A DNA stretch of 64,000 nt from a virus. Below are positions 30,553-41,833 of the stretch, piece after piece. The notes under the pieces were generated by a model, which ran no database searches, was not told where the DNA came from, and worked only from the letters and a program-made list of their open reading frames with translations. Every line of letters starts with the position of its first letter. The first letter of the stretch is position 1. The stretch lies in the IMG/VR virus record IMGVR_UViG_3300002054_000060. One strand, 5' to 3'. The translations under genes were made by a program, and so were the position numbers.

Positions 30553-31105
30553 TTGGCGTCTTGAGGTGTAGCGCTGCTATCGCTGTCAAAATGTCATCGA
30601 TGGATCCCGCGTTCTCCAGCACGAAATCAACGTCATCTTCGTGCAAGCCTGCTTCGCTGCTGTGTGATCCGTTGGCGCACGCGCTGGCGTTGTACCCCTC
30701 GTAGGAGGGCTTTATCTGCACGATCACGCCACCGAGCTCGCGTATAGCAGTGGCCTCATTTGCGTAGCGCACGTCGTCGCAGACCAAGCACTTGCCGGCG
30801 TGCAGCAAAGGCATCGCATTCATTCGCAGATGTTCCACCCAGAGATCCGGGTGTATAGAGCGACCCCAATCCCCCAGTGTCTGCATCCCGTAGCGTGCAG
30901 AGCGCCCCAGGAGCTCAGGGCACGACTCATTCTTTTCGTTGCCATACAGTGCGGATGGACTTACCCCCAAAGCGCCTATCATGGTCTTAATAGGGCTGGC
31001 AAAGCTGACCTTTTGCCACTTGTGATCATGAATAAGGTGCTTCGCCACCGTGGACTTACCACTGTGAGCTGGGCCTGAGAGCCCTATGATTGCGTGACCA
31101 CTCAT
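30545..31105 (-). CDS. deoxynucleoside monophosphate kinase
   Basis: IIGLSGPAHSGKST; FASPIK; MQTLG.WGR; DDVRYANEA; HSSE. Confidence 0.9.
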   Translation of the reverse strand: MSGHAIIGLSGPAHSGKSTVAKHLIHDHKWQKVSFASPIKTMIGALGVSPSALYGNEKNESCPELLGRSARYGMQTLGDWGRSIHPDLWVEHLRMNAMPLLHAGKCLVCDDVRYANEATAIRELGGVIVQIKPSYEGYNASACANGSHSSEAGLHEDDVDFVLENAGSIDDILTAIAALHLKTPID

Positions 31106-31455
31106 GTGTTTTTCTCCGCTCGATTGGCCTGCTCACTTAGGTCAACCGCTTGGCCCTCAACAAAAAGCGTTTCGCAGTCACGCCGGTAAACCTGATGCTC
31201 TGCATCTTCGACCAGGTTCTGCTGATCGTCGCGGGCAACAAGGCAGTATTTTTCTTGGTTGATCGGCTTTACCAGCACGGTCTCCCCCAGTAAGTGCCCG
31301 TACCAAATCTGGTCATACGCCAGGGAGATGATCTTGACTAGCCTTGCTGACATGCTGTTCTCGTGCAGTGGGGTGAATCGATCGGGTTCTATCTCGCTCA
31401 CCGCGGCGTCACTCCAGACGAGCACCTGGGCGGGGCGAGGGGGTTGTTCAGTCAC
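31102..31455 (-). CDS. hypothetical protein
   Basis: GTG start, coupled to the dNMP kinase. Confidence 0.65.
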   Translation of the reverse strand: MTEQPPRPAQVLVWSDAAVSEIEPDRFTPLHENSMSARLVKIISLAYDQIWYGHLLGETVLVKPINQEKYCLVARDDQQNLVEDAEHQVYRRDCETLFVEGQAVDLSEQANRAEKNT

Positions 31456-31462
31456 AATATCA

Positions 31463-31474
31463 GTATGTGCTTAC
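31463..31474 (-). promoter_or_regulatory. 12-bp box variant (ATA-GTAAGCACATAC on - strand)
   Basis: Directly upstream of GTG 31455; 11/12 match with the ATAGT context. Confidence 0.65.
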
Positions 31475-31521
31475 TATTTTGCTTACGCAAAGCAGGACGC
31501 AGTGCGCGCTGCTAGTGCTGC

Positions 31522-31854
31522 TCACTCTAACTCGCCGTTTTCCATCTTGGCTTTGAGCGCGAGCAGCTCTTCGACCTCTTCGGTGGTCATGTTGGAGACC
31601 AGCTTTTTCTTCTTGGACCGGTGCTTGCGAATCTCTTGGCGCTCAGCCCGCAGTTTCTCAAGCTCTTCTCGGAATCGATCACTTAGAGACTCGGTGGAAA
31701 GAATCATAGCGCCGACAAAATCCTCCTGCGTCACCTGATTTTCACTGGTCAGGCGCTTGAGTTGTTCAAGCGCGGCTTCGGTAAGATAGAACGTGCGTCT
31801 GGCGCCGGGTCGAGCCTCTGAAATGGGCCTGAGTGCCGCTGATTTGGTGCTCAT
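31522..31854 (-). CDS. putative ribbon-helix-helix DNA-binding protein
   Basis: RRTFYLTEAALEQLKRL..E..VTQEDFV beta-alpha-alpha pattern followed by a coiled coil. Confidence 0.55.
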   Translation of the reverse strand: MSTKSAALRPISEARPGARRTFYLTEAALEQLKRLTSENQVTQEDFVGAMILSTESLSDRFREELEKLRAERQEIRKHRSKKKKLVSNMTTEEVEELLALKAKMENGELE

Positions 31855-31934
31855 TTTCTACGCCTCTTTGGTGGAATTTTTGTATTAAGTTAAATAATAG
31901 TCTTGCATCTAGTAATTATGACATGTATTCGCAG

Positions 31935-31946
31935 GTAAGCGCTCAC
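31935..31946. promoter_or_regulatory. 12-bp box variant (GTAAGCGCTCAC)
   Basis: In the AT-rich gap upstream of 31854. Confidence 0.6.
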
Positions 31947-34621
31947 TCATTGCCAAAAACAGCGTAGTCAAAATCACCAGCGAGAATCCCCTCACGGAAC
32001 CCAGGGGTTTGCTCCACAATGGCCCGGCGCAGCTTGGCGTGCTTTTTCAGGTGCTGGTGGAAGGGGTCTGAGAAGTCGATGATGTAGCAGATGTTCGGGC
32101 CGCTTTTCTTGGCTCGCAAAGCTCGTCCGATACGCTGGCGCAGGCCCGTCTCAGCTTTGCCCCCGCCACCGATTGCGAGAAATCCCACGCTGGGCACATC
32201 GACGCCGACATCCAGAATGGTGGTGCCGATGAGGATACCACCGCGCTTGATGACCTCAATGCCGGCCTTGCGCTGCGCCTTGGAGCTCGACCCCTGGATG
32301 TAGTCCACATCGATGTCAGGGGCTGCCGCCTGCATCATGCGCTTGAGAATCTCCCCGTGTGCTCGCTGCTGCACCAATATGAGCCCCGAGAGGCCATGCC
32401 GGTTGGCACGAATCGTCTCGGTGACAATCTGCCGGTTGCGATCCTCGTTCTCCGTGATGCCCATCTTGACCGCCTTCTGGTACGTCGCTGTGCGCGATAG
32501 CAACAAAGGGGCGCGTGCTGTCAGGTAGCGAAAGTAGGGGCGAGCCAGAATGCCGTTCTCAATAAGCTCTTGCTCACTGACCTGAATGGCGATCTCACCG
32601 GCAGTTGCCATCAGTCGCATGTTCGCCTCCATGTCATCGTTCATGAAGGGTGTTGCTGTCAGTGCCAGCCGGTAGTGCGCGTTCCTGCAGCCGTTCATCA
32701 CGCGAAAATAGGAATCAGAGGACGCTTCGTGTGCCTCCTCCATGATCACGCACTCAAACTTCAACAGCATTTCACGCACGTACACCGCACGCTGGTTGTG
32801 TGCTGCGACCTTGGCCTTGACGCGCTCCTCCACTTCGCGCTCAGGCTCGCGCTTGGCAACCAGTGCTGCTTTGAAGCTCTTGAGCCTCTCGAGCCGCTGG
32901 TGAGCGGATAGCCCGCCCAGGTGATCCCTTGTGAACGCCTTGATTTCCTTCTGCTCCTTGGCGTACTGCGCATCAAGCGTTGACATCAGCTCATCACTCA
33001 CCGATTTCTCCACCATTTGCTGCGCGATGGTCTGCACCATGCCGACGTTGAAGCCCTCGATCACGTTGATGTCGCCTTCGCCGACCATGCCGACCGGGAT
33101 GTTCATCGTCTCCATGATCGAGTCGCGCATCTGGTGCATCAGCACCTTGCGTGTCGTGAGAAATAGGGTGGTGCGACCCAAGTGTTTGAAGGCGATTTTA
33201 CAAACTCGGCTGTTATGCACCACGGTGAAATCAGCCAGCAGGAAGCGATGGTTGCCATCGACCTCAATACCAACGTATTCGCCGTCCTCCGAATCCACAC
33301 TGACCTCAAAACTGGTGTGCGTTGCCACCTTGTTTCTGCTTTGCGAAGTGACCCGCTTGCGTGGCACGCGAGTCGGAATCTCACTCAGCTCGCCCGAAAT
33401 GTGCATACGCTGATAGGGTGCGCCCATTGCCCACTTTTCACTGCGCGAGACGCGATAGCCTAAGCTGCGCCCTAGAAACTGAATAGCGTCAGCGAGCCGC
33501 TTAGACTTCTGGATGATCTCCAAGCTGTTTTTGTGCAGGTAGCCATCGGTGTCAATCAATCCCGCTAGCAGTTGCAGGCGCTGCTGACGACTGCTGGTGA
33601 GGTACTTCATAGGAATGGTCTTGAGCCACTTGCCATCTGGCGTTTCGTAGCGAAAACCGTGCAGCGCTCGACGCAGATGATTGAGCTTGCCGCGTTGTGT
33701 TGAAAGTGCAAGCGTCGGGCACACCCCCTCTTTTTTTCTGGCGTAGTCATTCAGCGACATGCCGTGCCTTATCGACATTCGCTCCAGATACTCTCGAATC
33801 TCAGGCTCTGGGTTGGTAATCTCAACCCCATGAACGGAGCCGTCGCCAAGCCACAGTCCAATCAAATAGGGATCGTGCGGAAAATCCACGGCATCCCATC
33901 CGTCATAACCGACTGAGAATTGCTTGGCGCAGTGCTTGAAGGTCTTGTTTTCTGCCAGGTAGTCCTCGATGTCGATGTCTACCACATCCTTGTCACGATA
34001 CGCCTTGGCTCTGCCGCAGTATTTGAGCGAGAGCGTGTGTCGGTCGTTACAGACCCACTCATCGTAGGAGGTGGCTGCTGTGGGCTTGATCCGGTACATT
34101 TTGGAGCGTCCAGAGTGAGTGCCCGTCACCGTCCTGAGCGTGTTGTCATCGCCAAGTAACTGGTCGCCCACGCGCACATCCTCGATCTTGCGGCGAGTGC
34201 CATCTGACATCAGCACTTCTGTGCCGGGCCGAAAACACTTACCTCCGCCCGTGGCGACCTGCGCAATGATCTGTCGGTGACGCGCCAGCAGCTCCCCTGT
34301 GCGAAACTGATAGTCGTACCGCGGATCATTGCCAAAGGAGTCCACCACGCACTCACGCACGGGCGGTCCCAGTGGGGGTGGCGCCTCGTGGCGTATCACT
34401 GTGACGTGATACTTCGCCGCAGTTAGCGCTTTGTACACCGTGGTGAGAAAGCCTGTGGGGAACTGCCCCTCGCCCCACTTAAAGAACGTCGATTGGCGGA
34501 TCGTGCCGTTGTATTCGGAGGTGTAGCCCAACCGCCCGGAAATCAGTTTCTTCACCTCTCCGTCCACATCCCCGTCAAGTTGTGTGGTGACAGGATTCGA
34601 GAGTAGGCGTATCGACTTCAT
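31943..34621 (-). CDS. SF2 (DEAD/DEAH-like) helicase containing an intein
   Basis: ATGGGK|S Walker A; EEAH; LTATP; TTILDVGVDVP; QRIGRALR. Confidence 0.92.
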   Translation of the reverse strand: MKSIRLLSNPVTTQLDGDVDGEVKKLISGRLGYTSEYNGTIRQSTFFKWGEGQFPTGFLTTVYKALTAAKYHVTVIRHEAPPPLGPPVRECVVDSFGNDPRYDYQFRTGELLARHRQIIAQVATGGGKCFRPGTEVLMSDGTRRKIEDVRVGDQLLGDDNTLRTVTGTHSGRSKMYRIKPTAATSYDEWVCNDRHTLSLKYCGRAKAYRDKDVVDIDIEDYLAENKTFKHCAKQFSVGYDGWDAVDFPHDPYLIGLWLGDGSVHGVEITNPEPEIREYLERMSIRHGMSLNDYARKKEGVCPTLALSTQRGKLNHLRRALHGFRYETPDGKWLKTIPMKYLTSSRQQRLQLLAGLIDTDGYLHKNSLEIIQKSKRLADAIQFLGRSLGYRVSRSEKWAMGAPYQRMHISGELSEIPTRVPRKRVTSQSRNKVATHTSFEVSVDSEDGEYVGIEVDGNHRFLLADFTVVHNSRVCKIAFKHLGRTTLFLTTRKVLMHQMRDSIMETMNIPVGMVGEGDINVIEGFNVGMVQTIAQQMVEKSVSDELMSTLDAQYAKEQKEIKAFTRDHLGGLSAHQRLERLKSFKAALVAKREPEREVEERVKAKVAAHNQRAVYVREMLLKFECVIMEEAHEASSDSYFRVMNGCRNAHYRLALTATPFMNDDMEANMRLMATAGEIAIQVSEQELIENGILARPYFRYLTARAPLLLSRTATYQKAVKMGITENEDRNRQIVTETIRANRHGLSGLILVQQRAHGEILKRMMQAAAPDIDVDYIQGSSSKAQRKAGIEVIKRGGILIGTTILDVGVDVPSVGFLAIGGGGKAETGLRQRIGRALRAKKSGPNICYIIDFSDPFHQHLKKHAKLRRAIVEQTPGFREGILAGDFDYAVFGNE
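33212..34237 (-). mobile_element. intein 1 with LAGLIDADG homing endonuclease (342 aa)
   Basis: CFRPGTEVLMSDG...VVHN|S; LIGLWLGDG and LLAGLIDTDG. Confidence 0.95.
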
Positions 34622-34658
34622 GCAGTTTCTAGTGAATGGGGTCAGGGTTGGTAACTAA

Positions 34659-34670
34659 GTAAGTGCTTAT
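34659..34670. promoter_or_regulatory. 12-bp box (GTAAGTGCTTAT) in the divergent helicase/ParB promoter
   Basis: 11/12 match; TATACT 4 bp downstream. Confidence 0.75.
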
Positions 34671-34726
34671 ACAGTATACTCGCACTGTAAGGCTTATATA
34701 TAAGTTTCACCCAACGACAAAGGCAC

Positions 34727-35428
34727 ATGGGCAAACCTGATCGATCAACGCTCCAAATAGAGCATCTGGATCCCCGCACGCTCAAAGCGAACGGGTGGAA
34801 CACCAATGTGCTCGGTCCCGATGAAGAGGAGAAGCTGGAGGCCTCGCTACGCCGATTCGATTTGTTCGATGCGATCAAGGTGCGCACGCTACCCAACGGT
34901 GACCTGGAGGTGATCGGAGGCAAGCACCGCGCAGAGGCGGCGATCCGTATTGGTTACGAAACCGTGCCGGTGCTGAACCTGGGGCCGCTCGATGACATCA
35001 CCGCACGCGAGATTTCCGCGGTAGATAACGGACGCTATGGCAAGGACGACCCGGTGAAGTTGCTTGCACTCATCGAGGAGCTCGGTGAGGCAGACGTTGA
35101 CCTCTCTGACTACATGATCTACGACCAGGTAGCGATCGACGCAGCACTGGCTTACAAGGGCGTAGACCTATCAGCGCTCGGAGCGGAAGAAGATTCAAAC
35201 CCTGAGCTGTCCGGTGACGACGCCAGAGGGGATGCCAGTGACGATGAGCCGGCACGCACGCGCACCACTCAGCAGACCCTGAAGTTTCAGATGGAGCCGA
35301 CTGAGGCGGAAGCAGTCATGCGCCGCATCAACGACACCATCACCGAACAGGGCATTGCAGAGGGTTCACAGCGAGCCAACGCCGGCGCGGCGCTGCTGTT
35401 TCTGGTACTGGGGGAGGACGCCCTGTGA
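34727..35428 (+). CDS. ParB/Srx-domain protein 1
   Basis: L.ANGWNTN...L..SL.RF...I.VR...VIGGKHR. Confidence 0.85.
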   Translation: MGKPDRSTLQIEHLDPRTLKANGWNTNVLGPDEEEKLEASLRRFDLFDAIKVRTLPNGDLEVIGGKHRAEAAIRIGYETVPVLNLGPLDDITAREISAVDNGRYGKDDPVKLLALIEELGEADVDLSDYMIYDQVAIDAALAYKGVDLSALGAEEDSNPELSGDDARGDASDDEPARTRTTQQTLKFQMEPTEAEAVMRRINDTITEQGIAEGSQRANAGAALLFLVLGEDAL

Positions 35429-36051
35429 ACGACTCAAAGCAGACACTCAAGGTTGAGCAATTTCCCGTTGCAGACCTTGTGCCTTATGAAAAGAACGCCA
35501 AGCATCACCCGCAGCAGCAGGTCGAAGAGCTGGCCGAACGCATAGCCGCTTTCGGATTCGATCAACCCATCGTTATTCGCGGTGATGGCGAGATCATCAA
35601 GGGGCATGGCAGGCGCTTGGCCGTCATGCACTTGGGTTGGGAGAACGTGCCTGTCGTCATCCGCGATGACTTGACAGAGGAGGAGGTACGCCTTGCCAGA
35701 CTCTCAGATAACGCAATGGCGGGCTTAGGCGAATACGACGCCGAGCTGATGGCAGCCGAGATGGCAGAGCTTGCTGATTTGAACCCAGAGATCGATCTAG
35801 CACTCGCCGGCACGCAGTTCTTCGATATCGATTCGGGCAACTTCTCGCTGATGCTTTCGGGCGATCAAGACGACGCGCCTACACCGGAGAAGGATGGCAA
35901 GCCCAATATGGACACGGGCACCGATGTCGAGGACAAGGATTACGTGGCGCAATACCTGATAACGCTGGAGTGCTCTGGCGAAGCCGAACAGGAGGCTGTC
36001 TACGAGCTGCTTACCGGTAAGGGTTACCGACCAAAGGTACAGACGCTATGA
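35425..36051 (+). CDS. ParB/Srx-domain protein 2
   Basis: LVPYEKNAKHH...I..FGFDQPIVI...IIKGHGRRLA...RLSDN. Confidence 0.9.
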   Translation: MNDSKQTLKVEQFPVADLVPYEKNAKHHPQQQVEELAERIAAFGFDQPIVIRGDGEIIKGHGRRLAVMHLGWENVPVVIRDDLTEEEVRLARLSDNAMAGLGEYDAELMAAEMAELADLNPEIDLALAGTQFFDIDSGNFSLMLSGDQDDAPTPEKDGKPNMDTGTDVEDKDYVAQYLITLECSGEAEQEAVYELLTGKGYRPKVQTL

Positions 36052-36659
36052 ACGCCGTGGTGGGTAGAAAATCAATTTCGGCCAAGCGGCGCGAGTTGAT
36101 TCTTGAGCAGGGGTCAACGGGCATTGTTCAGATAGACACCGGCATCGCGTTTGGCTACACCGGTGAAATCATCACCAGTGTCTACGGCCCAAATCACTGG
36201 CTTGTGCCGGACGCTCTGGTATCAGGCCAGCCATCCCCTGAGCGCATTTTTGCGCACACCGCGGTGACTTACTTAGGGGTTGGCGAAATGACTTCTTTCC
36301 GCAAGGAGCGCATTGCGTTGCAAGCCTGTATGAGATCCCTCACAGCTAGACAAACCTTTGTGGCAACCAACACACTCGATTTGAAGGGTCAGTTGAGTTA
36401 CCTGTTGCGCTCACTGGCTCTTGGACCTATGGGCATCACCAATCGAGAGGGGTTGGTCCTGGAGGTATCGAGAACGAACCTGGCGGCAATGCTCGGTTGC
36501 AGTCGAGAAATGGTGGGACGCATCATTAGGGAGCTAACCGTCTCCGGCGTTATTCATTGCCTTGGCGGCTGCAAAAGTATCACCGTGCTTGGGGTTTATC
36601 GAGACCCTCCAGAGCCACTAATGCCATTGCCCCTTTCTTCAATGGGGCACGCATCATGA
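36048..36659 (+). CDS. Crp/Fnr-family transcriptional regulator
   Basis: SRTNLAAMLGCSREMVGRIIREL...G.I is the Crp HTH signature. Confidence 0.85.
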   Translation: MNAVVGRKSISAKRRELILEQGSTGIVQIDTGIAFGYTGEIITSVYGPNHWLVPDALVSGQPSPERIFAHTAVTYLGVGEMTSFRKERIALQACMRSLTARQTFVATNTLDLKGQLSYLLRSLALGPMGITNREGLVLEVSRTNLAAMLGCSREMVGRIIRELTVSGVIHCLGGCKSITVLGVYRDPPEPLMPLPLSSMGHAS

Positions 36660-38803
36660 AGTTTGAACACAGTGTTCGGGTTGACTACCAACACTCGTTT
36701 CGCGCCGACCGCGTGGCGGGCATGTTCGACATCGACCCGGCTGAGTACGAGCTTGAGAAAACCTGGTCAGTGGACATGCCTTTTGAGGACATTCCTGACT
36801 GGCGCGTGGGCCTGATCGTTGGTCCAAGCGGATCCGGTAAGTGCCTTGGCCCCGAGACAGAGATCATCATGTATGACGGCAGCTTCAAGCGCGTTGACCA
36901 GATCAAAGTGGGCGACAAGCTGCTCGGCGATGACAACAAGCCTCGCAGGGTCACCGCGATAACTCGAGGTAGATCCAAGATGTACAAGATTGAGCCTGGT
37001 CGCGGTTACGATACATGGCGCTGCAATGACAAGCACATCATGACCTTGGTAAGTGGCTCCAAGACCGCTCTTGCCGAACGCGACGAGGTGGTGGACATTG
37101 GCATCGACGAATATCTGAAGCTGAACAAGGGTCAAAAACCACCTCTCAAGCAATTTTCAGTTGGATTTGACGGGTGGACTCGCACAGACTTTCCGTTTGA
37201 CCCTTACTTGATGGGGCTGTGGCTGGGTGACGGAAGCCGAGGTGATGTGAGAATACACAACCCGGATCAGGAGATTATTGATTACCTGCACGAGTTTGTT
37301 GACGAGAATCCTGAGTACAGGCTGGTCAGCAGAGAGGATGAGGAACAGTGCCCATGTCACTCGTTGAGAACAAAGGGCAAGGGAATGTATGCCAAGAACC
37401 CCTTTCTTGATTTTGTTAGGACTTTGATTGATGTCGATGGCAATAAGTATGTACCTACTGAGTATCTGACATCAGCCATTGATCAGCGAGCCCGCTTGCT
37501 GGCCGGCTTGATTGACACAGATGGCTATAACGGCAATGGCTCTATTGAGATCATTCAGCGATCCAAGCCGCTGGCTGATGCGGTTCAGTTTTTGGCTCGA
37601 TCTCTCGGGCTGCGAGTGAAGCGCTGTGTAAAGCGCGTCGAGGGTTACGACCATGATTACCACCGCATGTCGATCTCGGGCGATTTTTCACACATACCCA
37701 TTCGCATCGAGCGCAAAAAGCCGGGCGAGTTCAAGGGAAACAGAAATCCGCTGCGCGCTGGTTTTGAGGTTATTGAGGAGGAAAGCGAGGGCGATTACGT
37801 CGGCATCATGGTTGACGGCAACCAGCGCTTCCTGAAGTCTGATTTTGTCGTGGTGCATAACACCACCGTGGCACGCAGAGCCTTTGGTGACGCCTACCAC
37901 GAGGGGTTTGAATGGGACGGTCGCTCGCTTATCGACAACTTCCCCAAAGAGATGAGTTCTGACGAGGTGGTGGCGTGTCTCTCCAGTGTCGGGCTGTCGT
38001 CACCCCCTTCGTGGTTGAAGCCGCATCACGTCCTATCCAACGGAGAGAAGTTCCGTGCTGACATGGCAAGGCTCATCGCAGAGGCGCCGGATGACAAGCC
38101 GATCGTGGTGGATGAGTTCACCTCTGTGGTGGATCGACAGGTGGCAAAGATCGCCTCGCATTGTGTGGCGAAGAACGTCAGAAAGAAGAACAAGCGTTTT
38201 GTGGCTGTTTCCTGCCATGACGACATCGCGGAGTGGCTCGAGCCGGACTGGATATACCAGGTCGATTCGGGCGAGTTCCGCAGGGGGTCTCTTCGGCGGC
38301 CTCAACTTGTACTCCAGGTCGAAAGAAGAGACAACAAAGTATGGCGACTCTTCGCTGGTCATCACTATTTAGACGCCTCAAACCACAAGTCGAGTCACTG
38401 CTACGTCGCCTCGCTAGAGGGCAAACCGGTTGGCTTTTGCAGCGTACTGAAATTCCCCCACGCGCACCCGAACATGGCGAATATGTGGCGTGCGAGTCGT
38501 TCTGTTTGCCTGCCTGACTATCAAGGGCTCGGCATTGGGGTAAAGCTGATCGATGCGGTCGGAGGTATATACGTAGCTGACGGTAAGCGCTTTAGAGCCA
38601 CAGCCAGCCACCCGGCAATGATTCATCACTTCAATAACACTCCGAACTGGTTGATGGTGCGAGCCCCGGGTCGCGCACCGCGCCCAGGCAAGAACTCCAA
38701 GATAACGAGTCAGTCGCACGCACGCCTGACGGCAAGCTACGAATACGTCAGCGACGAGCATCTCGCCGAACGACAACAAAAAGAGGTCATAGACCCAAAA
38801 TGA
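36656..38803 (+). CDS. ABC-ATPase / GNAT acyltransferase fusion containing an intein
   Basis: GPSGSGK|T; LSNGE; VVDEFTS; SCH; C-terminal VCLPDYQGLGIG acetyl-CoA motif; start reset to ATG 36656. Confidence 0.9.
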   Translation: MKFEHSVRVDYQHSFRADRVAGMFDIDPAEYELEKTWSVDMPFEDIPDWRVGLIVGPSGSGKCLGPETEIIMYDGSFKRVDQIKVGDKLLGDDNKPRRVTAITRGRSKMYKIEPGRGYDTWRCNDKHIMTLVSGSKTALAERDEVVDIGIDEYLKLNKGQKPPLKQFSVGFDGWTRTDFPFDPYLMGLWLGDGSRGDVRIHNPDQEIIDYLHEFVDENPEYRLVSREDEEQCPCHSLRTKGKGMYAKNPFLDFVRTLIDVDGNKYVPTEYLTSAIDQRARLLAGLIDTDGYNGNGSIEIIQRSKPLADAVQFLARSLGLRVKRCVKRVEGYDHDYHRMSISGDFSHIPIRIERKKPGEFKGNRNPLRAGFEVIEEESEGDYVGIMVDGNQRFLKSDFVVVHNTTVARRAFGDAYHEGFEWDGRSLIDNFPKEMSSDEVVACLSSVGLSSPPSWLKPHHVLSNGEKFRADMARLIAEAPDDKPIVVDEFTSVVDRQVAKIASHCVAKNVRKKNKRFVAVSCHDDIAEWLEPDWIYQVDSGEFRRGSLRRPQLVLQVERRDNKVWRLFAGHHYLDASNHKSSHCYVASLEGKPVGFCSVLKFPHAHPNMANMWRASRSVCLPDYQGLGIGVKLIDAVGGIYVADGKRFRATASHPAMIHHFNNTPNWLMVRAPGRAPRPGKNSKITSQSHARLTASYEYVSDEHLAERQQKEVIDPK
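36842..37861 (+). mobile_element. intein 2 with LAGLIDADG homing endonuclease (340 aa)
   Basis: CLGPETEIIMYDG...VVHN|T; LMGLWLGDG and LLAGLIDTDG. Confidence 0.95.
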
Positions 38804-39090
38804 GCCGCGGATTTTCCGAAAAACAGAAGTCCATTCTCAAGGTCATCATGGTGGGCAATGAGGACGGCACCGACGTTGACATGGATCAGTTGATCAACAG
38901 GGTCAACTACAAGACCACTAAGGAGTCAATGCAGTTTAGCCTGCGTGCGCTCATCAAGCGCGGGTACGTTGAGAAGCTCGGCTGCGAGAAGCGCCGCGGC
39001 CACTCACGTCGTTTGATCAGGTGCACAGAAGAGGCGCGCTTGGCGTTTGAAAACTACTTGCCCTTCGTGCCGGACAAAGAGCCTTCGTGA
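38800..39090 (+). CDS. winged-helix DNA-binding protein
   Basis: SEKQKSILKVI...SMQFSLRALIKRGYVEK pattern. Confidence 0.7.
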   Translation: MSRGFSEKQKSILKVIMVGNEDGTDVDMDQLINRVNYKTTKESMQFSLRALIKRGYVEKLGCEKRRGHSRRLIRCTEEARLAFENYLPFVPDKEPS

Positions 39091-39842
39091 GCGACATGGG
39101 TGCTTCCGCTGCTGACATCAGGGCGGAAGAAAAAACGAAGCGAGGCCCACGTCGAAACTGGACTCCGAGTGAGTGGCTCAAGGCTCGCACCATGTACGAG
39201 ACTGGCGACTACACCGTTAAGGAAATTGCCGATAAATTTGGTCGCAACAAGACCTCACTCTCCCAAAGGTTCAAGCGCTTTGGTGTCAAGAAAGGCACCA
39301 ACTTCACTGAGGCATCCACCAAGGTCGAGCGAGATCTGCGGCGCGAGCAGCGTGAGAAGGCTGACGAGACCGTAAAGCGAGCCAAGGAAACCAAGGAGGA
39401 ACACTACAAGTGGGCCCGCTCTCTGTCGCAAATGGCCGTATCGATACTCGCCAAGGCTCAGAGCGAGAGCCGACCGATCGGTATGGTCAAGCCGGACATT
39501 CTGGCCGTCAAGGCGGCAATGGAGGCGCTACAAAAGGGGCAGGACATGCGCAACATCGCGCTGGGGTTAGATAAAGGCGACATCCTCGACACCGATGAGA
39601 TCCCCGAATTTGGCATCGTCGAGATGACCGAGGACGAGCGACTGGAGGTAATACGCAAAGCGGATTCTCTGCTTGAACTCTCCGAGGACATGGACATCAC
39701 TACAACAGGTGAAGGGGAGCGAGAAGAAGCCGTCGCGCAGCAAGAGTCCGAGGTGCGCTCAAATATGGAGCGCCTGAAGTCAGAGTATGTCGATGATGGC
39801 GGTGTCGATGGCGCTGCTCGCATACCGGGTCACGACGCCTGA
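39087..39842 (+). CDS. terS: terminase small subunit (putative)
   Basis: N-terminal HTH (YETGDYTVKEIADKFG); directly upstream of TerL. Confidence 0.7.
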   Translation: MSDMGASAADIRAEEKTKRGPRRNWTPSEWLKARTMYETGDYTVKEIADKFGRNKTSLSQRFKRFGVKKGTNFTEASTKVERDLRREQREKADETVKRAKETKEEHYKWARSLSQMAVSILAKAQSESRPIGMVKPDILAVKAAMEALQKGQDMRNIALGLDKGDILDTDEIPEFGIVEMTEDERLEVIRKADSLLELSEDMDITTTGEGEREEAVAQQESEVRSNMERLKSEYVDDGGVDGAARIPGHDA

Positions 39843-39846
39843 GCTC

Positions 39847-41718
39847 ATGAATGATTTGCAGTTGCCAGCCGATGCGATGCGGCTGCACAGTAAACAGTTT
39901 GAGGTGTTCCGTAACCGCTCGCGTTTCCGCTGTGTGGTGGCTGGGCGCAGATTTGGTAAGTGCCAGAGTTTTGACACTTTGGTGGCAATGCAGGACGGAT
40001 CGTACCAGAAACTCGGCACCATCAAGGCCGGGGATCAGGTACTGGCGCTCAACGAAGCGACCTGCGAGCTTGAGCCGCGCACGGTGCAGCACGTCCATGA
40101 CAATGGCGTGCGTGAGGTCATCACGCTGACATTGACCAACGGGCGTGAAATCACCGCAACGCCCAATCACCCTTTCCTCGTGGATGGGCAGTGGATGGAG
40201 CTACAGGACGTGGAGCCTGGGCAGTTGATGGCGGTATCTAAACGTGAAACTTCGGGCAAGGAGTGCAGTAAGTACATACCGATTCGCTTTGAAGATTTTG
40301 TTGCTCATTTGCGACCTCACTCCAGCAGGGATACCGCGGAACTGCGTGAGCTGTTGAAAAGCTGGCGCAAGCAATCTACCAGCCGCATCAGCACTCGGCG
40401 CTATGAGCAGCTCAGGAAATTCTCAGACGGGCACTTCGATGCGCTGCTGTACGGCGATCTGCAGTTTTGCGAAGTCGAGTCGGTCAAGCACGAGCCAGAG
40501 CCGCAACAGACGTATGACCTGACCGTTGAGGGGCACCACAACTTTGTGGCGAACTCGATGATTACGCACAACACCGTTTTGTCTCAAGCCGAAATCATCA
40601 AGGCCGCCTCCAAGCCCAACAAACAGGTTTGGTACATAGCGCCGACCTACCGCATGGCGAAGCAAATCATGTGGCGAGAAATAAGAGATGTGATACCTCG
40701 CAGGTGGGTGCGCAAGACAAACCAGACCGCCATGAGCATCGACCTGGTTAACGGGTCGCGGATCGAGCTCAAGGGGTCAGATGACCCTGACAAGCTGCGA
40801 GGTGTGGCTCTCGATTTTGTAGTGCTGGACGAGTTCCAAGCTATGCGAAAGGAGACCTGGAGCGAGGCCATCCGGCCAACTCTTGCTACCACAGGGGGTC
40901 AGGCTTTGTTTATTGGGACGCCACTTTTGCGTAACCACCTCTACGACATGTACATGCAGGGCCAGAACCCCGTCAACATCAAAGAGGGCACATTTCGCTC
41001 GTGGCAGTTCGTCACCGCAGACAGTCCGTTTATTCCGCCGCGTGAAATTGAGATGGCGAAGCGCGAACTTGACCCCAAAACTTTCGGGCAAGAGTTCTTA
41101 GCCTCGTTTAATCTAATGTCCGGCAGGGTCTATTACGCCTTCAACCGCGACACCCATGTGGCAGATCTGCCGTTCAATCCCAACTTGCCTCTCTGGGTGG
41201 GTCAGGATTTCAACGTCGATCCGATGGCAGCCTCTGTGATGCAGTGGCACCCTGACCTGAACCAGCTCTGGGTCATCGACGAGATTGTGCTGCCGAACTC
41301 CAACACCCAAGAGGCGGTCGAGGAGCTGGAGCGCCGGTACTGGCGCAACAAGCGCAACACGAATATCTACCCGGATGCGACCGGTGCGAATCGCTCCACC
41401 TCGAGTTTCAAATCCGACATCGACATCATCCGGGACAGTGGCTACAACCGTATCAAGATGCGCAAGGTCAACCCGCCCGTTGCCGATCGAATCGCTGCGG
41501 TCAATAGAATGCTGCTGTCGGCTTCCGGGGCCGTCAGGATGCGTGTTGACCGTAAATGTACGCATCACATTCGCGCCTTTGAGCAGGTGGTCTACAAGCC
41601 CGGCTCTCGCGATGTGGACAAATCAGACGACATCGAGCACATCCTGGATGCCTGCGGTTACACGGTCCACGCTGAGTTCCCCACACGCAAGATACACATC
41701 CTTGGTGTCAACATTTGA
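39847..41718 (+). CDS. terL: terminase large subunit containing a mini-intein
   Basis: VAGRRFGK|T; IAPTYRMAK; LRG..LD.VVLDE; GQDFNVDPM; EHILDACGY; start ATG 39847. Confidence 0.95.
   Translation: MNDLQLPADAMRLHSKQFEVFRNRSRFRCVVAGRRFGKCQSFDTLVAMQDGSYQKLGTIKAGDQVLALNEATCELEPRTVQHVHDNGVREVITLTLTNGREITATPNHPFLVDGQWMELQDVEPGQLMAVSKRETSGKECSKYIPIRFEDFVAHLRPHSSRDTAELRELLKSWRKQSTSRISTRRYEQLRKFSDGHFDALLYGDLQFCEVESVKHEPEPQQTYDLTVEGHHNFVANSMITHNTVLSQAEIIKAASKPNKQVWYIAPTYRMAKQIMWREIRDVIPRRWVRKTNQTAMSIDLVNGSRIELKGSDDPDKLRGVALDFVVLDEFQAMRKETWSEAIRPTLATTGGQALFIGTPLLRNHLYDMYMQGQNPVNIKEGTFRSWQFVTADSPFIPPREIEMAKRELDPKTFGQEFLASFNLMSGRVYYAFNRDTHVADLPFNPNLPLWVGQDFNVDPMAASVMQWHPDLNQLWVIDEIVLPNSNTQEAVEELERRYWRNKRNTNIYPDATGANRSTSSFKSDIDIIRDSGYNRIKMRKVNPPVADRIAAVNRMLLSASGAVRMRVDRKCTHHIRAFEQVVYKPGSRDVDKSDDIEHILDACGYTVHAEFPTRKIHILGVNI
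39961..40572 (+). mobile_element. intein 3, mini-intein without LAGLIDADG motifs (204 aa)
   Basis: CQSFDTLV...ITATPNHPFL...TYDLTVEGHHNFVAN...THN|T. Confidence 0.92.
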
Positions 41719-41771
41719 ACACTGCGGTTGTGCATTACTGATAAAGTGCTATCATTTCAAGCAATTACACC

Positions 41772-41783
41772 GTAAGCACTTAC
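41772..41783. promoter_or_regulatory. 12-bp box GTAAGCACTTAC upstream of portal
   Basis: Symmetric form; 16 bp downstream of a TTGTGC-16-TATCAT promoter-like pair. Confidence 0.8.
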
Positions 41784-41833
41784 TTAGTTTCAACGTGCGT
41801 GAGCAAGCGTGATGCACACCGCCTGACCTTTCG

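Follow-up and report, generated by a model that had tools for sequence, protein, structure and literature searches.

The usual account has inteins spreading only from one allele of a gene to another. Little is on record about how they colonise new host proteins, least of all in phages, which are thought to be their main vehicles. How such a change of host may come about is the question raised by a 64,000-nucleotide stretch of viral DNA (the window; IMG/VR record IMGVR_UViG_3300002054_000060), in which two related LAGLIDADG inteins, I1 and I2, interrupt two unrelated ATPases at the same catalytic position. I1 lies in a superfamily 2 (SF2) DNA helicase and I2 in a fusion of an ABC-type ATPase with a GNAT acetyltransferase (ABC-GNAT). 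A first-pass annotation of the sequence had read the two as siblings, separated by one captured jump between these genes. Our analysis indicates instead that they are cousins within one small clade, and that I2 probably descends from a helicase-borne member of that clade which invaded the ABC-GNAT P-loop long ago by a non-allelic (ectopic) route, both inteins belonging to a promiscuous and already known family. The genes, inteins and diagnostic motifs concerned are listed below, with a slash at each splice junction.

31943..34621, minus strand: SF2 DNA helicase precursor gene, 892 residues, host of I1 (open reading frame (ORF) and translation; Pfam ResIII and Helicase_C; PHROG 16 DNA helicase, E 3e-72)
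33212..34237, minus strand: intein I1, 342 residues, precursor residues 129-470, junctions GGGK/C ... VVHN/S
34037-34051, minus strand: I1 block B, CNDRH
33836-33865 and 33539-33571, minus strand: I1 LAGLIDADG motifs
36656..38803, plus strand (ORF opens at 36557): ABC-GNAT precursor gene, 715 residues from the ATG at 36656, host of I2 (Pfam GNAT domain; PHROG 11143, E 4e-93)
36842..37861, plus strand: intein I2, 340 residues, junctions GSGK/C ... VVHN/T
37022-37036, plus strand: I2 block B, CNDKH
37208-37237 and 37496-37528, plus strand: I2 LAGLIDADG motifs

Two inteins at the Walker A lysine

The helicase ORF reads ...ATGGGK/C...VVHN/SRVC around I1, and removing the intein in silico gives ATGGGK-S, the canonical SF2 motif I. 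Around I2 the ABC-GNAT ORF reads ...GPSGSGK/C...VVHN/TTVA, and conceptual splicing gives IVGPSGSGK-TT, which is the family consensus, as in 186 uninterrupted relatives. The 715-residue form of this precursor is already on record. Homologues of the ABC-GNAT protein have PF00005 and GNAT domains; in the protein itself, NCBIfam models of ABC ATPases hit the ABC signature and the Walker B region with scores below the cut-off.

Both inteins have Cys1, a block B N-x-x-H, a terminal VVHN and a +1 Ser (I1) or Thr (I2), both contain L(I/M)GLWLGDG and LLAGLIDTDG, and in both Pfam finds Hom_end_hint, Hom_end and LAGLIDADG_3. An alignment of the eight closest inteins shows no variation at the splicing residues or at the acidic residue of either LAGLIDADG motif. 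The nearest solved protein to the profile of these eight sequences is PI-SceI (E 1e-32), and the profile match of I1 spans all 335 positions. An AlphaFold model of I2 (predicted local distance difference test score 77, predicted template modelling score 0.73) has PI-SceI structures as its best matches in the PDB (E 1.8e-22, TMq 0.70), followed by archaeal VMA inteins, PI-PfuI and I-DmoI. On their sequences, I1 and I2 are class 1 inteins of the PI-SceI type, with a Hint domain in which a two-motif LAGLIDADG endonuclease is nested, and for which splicing and cleavage are predicted. The eukaryotic PI-SceI interrupts the A subunit of the V-ATPase several residues past the P-loop and is followed by a +1 Cys; I1 and I2 lie directly at GK/S or GK/T in phage genes. 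PI-SceI (Saccharomyces cerevisiae VMA1; PDB 1VDE, 1LWS and 1EF0) shares with them Hom_end_hint, the N-x-x-H block B, the two LAGLIDADG motifs and VVHN, but is longer (454 residues compared with 340-342) and only 21-23% identical.

Class 3 inteins, which are common in phage P-loops, are marked by a Trp-Cys-Thr triad in which a Cys of block F acts as branch nucleophile, and they often lack a nucleophile at position 1. This class was considered for I1 and I2 and rejected, because Cys1 is present, block F (G-D/E-Y-V-G-I-x-V-D-G-N) has no Cys and a Val precedes the His-Asn.

By BLASTP, I1 and I2 are identical at 163 of 344 positions (47%, E 2e-103) and collinear from end to end with 6 gap positions; in the window they are separated by 2,604 bp and lie on opposite strands. 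At the DNA level similarity is found only in three short patches of 71-85% identity, and the two are thus too diverged for dating by synonymous rates. The GC content at third codon positions (GC3) is 62-66% in both inteins, near that of their own exteins (66-74%), while all other clade members have a GC3 of 21-45% in genomes of 33-51% GC. Both copies are therefore GC-adapted, which points to long residence in GC-rich genomes. These data bear out several points of the first-pass annotation: two collinear LAGLIDADG inteins at the coordinates listed above, with every motif pair it quoted present; an identical P-loop position in non-homologous hosts, with exact GGGK/S and GSGK/T junctions; and a divergence that is not very recent, in line with the amino acid identity, the patchy DNA similarity and the GC adaptation of both copies.

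The shared position is not in itself a sign of a special relationship. An exhaustive profile search with the eight closest sequences over 1.84 billion cluster representatives matched 23,078 of them at E<=1e-3. Gly-Lys stands directly upstream of the intein in 300 of the 337 full-length copies retrieved; about a dozen copies have Ala/Ser-Lys there and about fifteen are inserted three residues earlier (G/[ST]GK). At +1, 253 of the 337 copies have Thr, 81 have Ser and 3 have Cys. The hosts of the family include ResIII/Helicase_C (SF2), superfamily 1 (SF1), PIF1, UvrD, DnaB_C, RecA, AAA, SNF2 and SMC_N ATPases as well as terminase. The family is mostly phage-borne and resides in P-loop nucleoside triphosphatases (NTPases), at the point where the Gly-Lys of Walker A meets Ser or Thr. 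Insertion after the Walker A lysine is a trait of the whole family, and therefore true of almost any two members rather than special to I1 and I2.

Phylogenetic placement and origin of I2

Both inteins were searched against 5.8 billion proteins, which yielded six external inteins at 46-53% identity to both I1 and I2, as follows.

P0005: clade intein in an SF2 helicase
P0006, P0008, P0009 and P0011: clade inteins in UvsW-like helicases of syntenic T4-like contigs
P0010: clade intein in an SF1 helicase adjoining a primase

After these six come two inteins of SNF2 helicases and P0021, and all others are at most 44% identical. In the profile search over the 1.84 billion representatives, clade members score 534-592 bits and the next best outside scores 399. 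We built trees with IQ-TREE (LG+C20) from 45 inteins, and a second tree from 29 taxa with added allelic helicase inteins. An 11-member clade holding I1 and I2 was recovered in both (support 100/99 with 45 taxa and 99/97 with 29). Within it, I2 belongs to a seven-member subclade together with P0005, P0010 and the UvsW group (95/91 and 92/92, respectively), and I1 falls outside this subclade, with its order relative to it and to the P0021/SNF2 group left unresolved. Forcing I1 and I2 to be sisters costs about 17.8 log-likelihood units (approximately unbiased (AU) test, p 0.0066 with 45 taxa and 0.047 with 29). The identity of I2 is 46.6% to I1 as against 47-53% to the six external members, and its identity to I1 is its lowest in the clade for each partition (Hint-N, endonuclease and Hint-C). 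Judged by these sequences, I1 and I2 are cousins in one small clade and not an exclusive pair.

The intein phylogeny that the first-pass annotation had itself proposed thus upholds one supported clade for I1 and I2, but it groups I2 with others to the exclusion of I1. The sibling reading is not supported, with six external inteins as close or closer and the pair disfavoured by the AU test. Neither does I1 follow an allelic family of its own, as the inteins in orthologous helicases of syntenic relatives are 42%, 37% and 37% identical to it compared with 47% for I2; I1 is nearer to I2 than to these allelic counterparts. The annotation had also regarded ABC-GNAT as an unusual intein host, a view that the survey of related loci strengthens (0 of 186 interrupted). 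Its broader proposal of an ectopic jump between P-loop NTPases survives in part: a non-allelic origin is favoured for I2, but the neighbouring helicase as the donor is not supported.

For this survey we sampled the best 120 of 1,291 protein homologues of the ABC-GNAT protein and 186 loci. The motif IVGxSGxGK[ST] is uninterrupted in 27 IMG/VR loci and in L006, a 19.9-kb metagenomic contig; metagenome and genome collections supplied 160 further loci, of which 157 have an uninterrupted P-loop and three are truncated, and the P-loop is uninterrupted as well in L039, a Methylocaldum szegediense prophage. This amounts to no interruption at the ABC-GNAT P-loop in the 186 related loci inspected (28 + 157 + 1). 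No intein domain was found in the 119 best other homologues, each of at least 393 residues, and no GNAT domain among the intein matches listed. I2 is the sole intein seen in the ABC-GNAT family among about 300 sampled homologues. A literature search found no paper on an intein in an ABC-GNAT protein, although its coverage was incomplete and this is not proof of absence.

Three relatives share the gene order helicase (opposite strand), ParB, ParB, ABC-GNAT, small genes and the terminase large subunit gene (TerL), and all three carry a helicase intein.

L006, the 19.9-kb metagenomic contig: helicase intein P0021 at the same site, a clade member, 42% identical to I1
L152, gammaproteobacterial metagenome-assembled genome: helicase intein at the same site, from a distant part of the family, 37% identical to I1
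L039, the Methylocaldum szegediense prophage (GCA_000427385.1): helicase intein three residues upstream, ATG/SGKS, 37% identical to I1

In all three the ABC-GNAT site is empty although the helicase intein is present. Because the helicase inteins of these relatives differ in lineage or position, the helicase P-loop is a site invaded repeatedly and independently. We also observed P-loop-family inteins in genes beside ABC-GNAT at L162:3-2225 and L152:1-1269, again with an empty ABC-GNAT site; these neighbours fit frequent intein traffic in this phage group.

Since the nearest relatives of I2 are all in helicases (SF2, UvsW-like and SF1) and the ABC-GNAT copy is a one-off, an ectopic entry of I2 into ABC-GNAT is probable. 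The direction from helicase to ABC-GNAT is the parsimonious one, because clade inteins are found in many helicases but in a single ABC-GNAT protein. The process may be pictured as follows. Each intein would be translated in frame with its host and then presumably self-excise by means of Cys1, the block B N-x-x-H, the terminal His-Asn and the +1 Ser or Thr, so that the Walker A loop is made whole again. An endonuclease adapted to DNA that encodes P-loops could now and then cut a similar Walker A site in the gene of another ATPase, and the break could be repaired from the intein-bearing helicase gene by short homology. The donor would be a clade relative, and not demonstrably the neighbouring helicase copy.

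The DNA around the insertion sites offers some hints on target recognition. The flanks of the helicase and ABC-GNAT sites are identical at 12 of 30 bases on each side, with little in common beyond GGTAAG/A. By comparison, VGP-x-G-x-GK/TT is encoded at the spliced ABC-GNAT site and also where P0010 is inserted in its SF1 helicase, and these two sites share 16 of 24 bases upstream and 5 of 9 downstream. No traces of co-conversion (donor-like residues) are visible at the protein level beside the ABC-GNAT junction, where the flanks are those of the family consensus. The genome has four inteins, every one between the Walker A Lys and Ser/Thr (SF2 helicase, ABC-GNAT, TerL and a DnaB-like helicase), and at all four occupied sites Gly-Lys is encoded by GGTAAG (34232-34237 upstream codons, 36836-36841, 39955-39960 and G000 100774-100779). 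Genome-wide this dicodon encodes 17 of 83 Gly-Lys pairs (about 20%, or about 16% without the four occupied sites), and the intein-free Walker A sites have GGCAAA, GGCAAG and GGTAAG, that is, GGTAAG in one of three. Although the sample is only four sites, GGTAAG may hint at a target core read in the DNA or at co-conversion of the flanks.

Several considerations weigh against an ectopic origin of I2 from a clade relative elsewhere. The clade consists of only 11 sequences, mostly from short metagenomic contigs, and the true donor lineage is unsampled. Two members of so tiny a clade in one genome exceed random expectation, which leaves room for a local, even intragenomic, origin. With 120 of 1,291 proteins and 186 loci sampled, rare allelic ABC-GNAT inteins could exist. 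The flank identity outside GGTAAG/A is low, and mimicry of the target at ABC-GNAT would be plausible. The direction of transfer is drawn from occupancy counts, and it is from sequence that we infer splicing, nuclease activity, direction and mechanism.

The first of the alternatives is a direct intragenomic jump, in which the ancestral I1 endonuclease cut the ABC-GNAT gene 2.6 kb away and the break was repaired from the helicase copy, making I1 and I2 true paralogues. It would account for the presence of 2 of the 11 known clade members in one genome when the family comprises tens of thousands of representatives, for the greater closeness of I1 to I2 than to the orthologous-helicase inteins, and for the high GC3 common to I1 and I2 when other members reside in genomes of 33-51% GC; a tree with I1 basal and I2 among the remaining members could likewise result if an old jump had later spread outwards. 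Against this, I2 is less similar to I1 than it is to any of the six external members in every partition, the exclusive pair carries the likelihood cost and AU p values given above, and the site flanks share little beyond GGTAAG/A. We consider such a jump unlikely. The same low standing applies to the more specific proposal that ectopic homing is still active in this prophage lineage, where one lineage of P-loop-directed LAGLIDADG endonucleases, with a relaxed specificity centred on the Gly-Lys codons GGTAAG and the A-C after them, moved from helicase to ABC-GNAT within the genome. If this were true, the pair would supply a donor and a recipient from nature with which non-allelic homing of inteins could be measured in the laboratory.

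Allelic homing is slightly less probable again. According to this explanation, I2 came from an unsampled family of ABC-GNAT inteins via another ABC-GNAT gene, with any non-allelic step far back and elsewhere. In its favour, ABC-GNAT genes abound, with over 1,291 protein homologues and, in each of two contig collections, over 580 matching stretches, of which the inspected set is a fraction; the GC adaptation of I2 also speaks for long residence. But neither the 186 loci nor the 119 other proteins hold an intein, the search of 1.84 billion representatives gave no further scorer at clade level (399 compared with 534-592 bits), and GNAT domains occur in none of the intein matches listed. The inteins may also be viewed not as purely selfish but as retained regulators, four P-loop inteins kept because conditional splicing gates the ATPases that they interrupt (helicase, ABC-GNAT, terminase and DnaB). 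This would agree with the placement of all four at the same catalytic position and with the state of the TerL intein, in which the endonuclease is gone but the reading frame and the splicing ends are preserved; the literature includes a case made for selective retention at P-loops (PMC4760082). The occupancy of these sites in syntenic relatives is highly variable (empty, differently occupied or differently positioned), which is the signature of a homing cycle, and we regard retention as regulators as very improbable. An old ectopic entry of I2 from a helicase-borne clade relative is thus the origin that we favour.

Precedents and use as a test case

The enrichment of inteins at P-loops has long been known (PMC4760082). 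Kelley et al. (2016, mBio) described the 'classic' P-loop insertion, between the Walker A Lys and a nucleophilic Thr, for the mycobacteriophage intein TerL1-a (PMC5050341). Its insertion point is identical in I1, I2, the TerL intein and the DnaB intein of the present genome, but the hosts of TerL1-a are terminases and not ABC-GNAT proteins, and the same study did not report that inteins of one phage residing in different proteins are linked phylogenetically. In Anaeramoeba, Walker A inteins of non-homologous proteins branch together in cluster 1, which was read as transfer from P-loop to P-loop, with cluster 1 features noted in phages too (PNAS 2023; PMC10710043). That case concerns a eukaryotic nuclear genome with dozens of inteins, whereas here a prophage has four, and the kinship of its related pair is old, unlike that of copies made recently within a genome. 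Helicases of Jerseyvirus and related siphophages (e.g., Salmonella phage vB_SenS-Ent2 gp34) have LAGLIDADG inteins of the same family at GK/T, 36-39% identical to I1 and I2, but they belong to a different helicase family (no extein similarity at E 1e-3) and their inteins fall in a distant part of the tree. A phage-specific phylogenetic demonstration of P-loop hopping was not found in our literature search, whose coverage was incomplete, so this is not proof of absence.

Hopping between the P-loops of unrelated proteins is thus already published; what is new here is the ABC-GNAT host, the breadth of hosts in one tight clade and the natural empty sites. The hosts of one 11-member clade come from at least five families of P-loop NTPases that are unrelated to each other, with I2 as a clean natural example of host switching at Walker A. 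The empty sites of the syntenic relatives can be used as test substrates, and the two 47%-identical endonucleases, with their different native flanks, could help to work out how LAGLIDADG enzymes directed at P-loops recognise degenerate targets. Because the general phenomenon is published, the value of the locus lies in a well-delimited test case rather than in a new principle.

TerL and DnaB-like inteins and the gene neighbourhood

The remaining two inteins of the genome lie in TerL and, outside the window, in the DnaB-like helicase.

39787..41718, plus strand: TerL precursor gene, 643 residues, host of I3 (Terminase_6N/6C; PHROG 2)
39961..40572, plus strand: I3, mini-intein of 204 residues without an endonuclease, RRFGK/C ... 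ITHN/T, directly after the Walker A lysine (Pfam Intein_splicing, E 6e-26)
G000:C1:100780-102114 (= L034:1781-3115), plus strand: intein of the DnaB-like helicase, 445 residues, LAGLIDADG_3, PPKGGK/C...ISHN/S

Intein-free TerL orthologues in L006 and L015 read GRRWGK-T and GRRFGK-T, and the spliced TerL of the window matches them. The allelic copy at the I3 site in L040 has 431 residues and is 40-42% identical to I3 in its Hint parts; by its sequence, I3 looks like an endonuclease-deleted stage of the homing cycle. The DnaB intein is 31% identical to I3 over the N-terminal 100 residues and 58% over the last 19, and the best phage relatives of the TerL and DnaB inteins are 26-32% identical to them. 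Membership of either intein in the clade of I1 and I2 was rejected, as only about 29 N-terminal residues align (38%) and both are of a different Hint type (PF14890); the DnaB intein has no more than the fold in common with that clade. In the TerL orthologue at L039:12625-15259 the P-loop is empty and a different LAGLIDADG-containing insert lies further downstream, after ...FRQEFMA/C. This TerL is called as two overlapping ORFs (308 and 572 residues), which could be due to a frameshift, a sequencing error or a split arrangement.

The window corresponds to bases 23608-87607 of a 103,961-bp IMG/VR provirus record. A search of sequencing runs (Logan contigs) found its DNA in only three runs, all from one 'algae metagenome' sample, which is its probable source; no RNA run was among those listed. 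The contigs of these runs over 31900-41800 are identical to the window, with no joint that skips an intein, and are uninformative on intein-less variants in the population. A megablast of 31000-40000 against 50,697 phage records gave no match, and there is thus no close sequenced relative among these records.

Upstream of the ABC-GNAT gene, at 34727-36659 on the plus strand, lie two genes with ParB-N domains and a Crp-type helix-turn-helix gene; downstream of it follow a small gene of PHROG 900, a DNA-binding protein and then TerL. In many ABC-GNAT homologues (560-640 residues) a ParB-like part seems to be fused in (PF02195 with PF00005 and GNAT). The ParB/ABC-GNAT/TerL neighbourhood is a conserved pre-terminase module.

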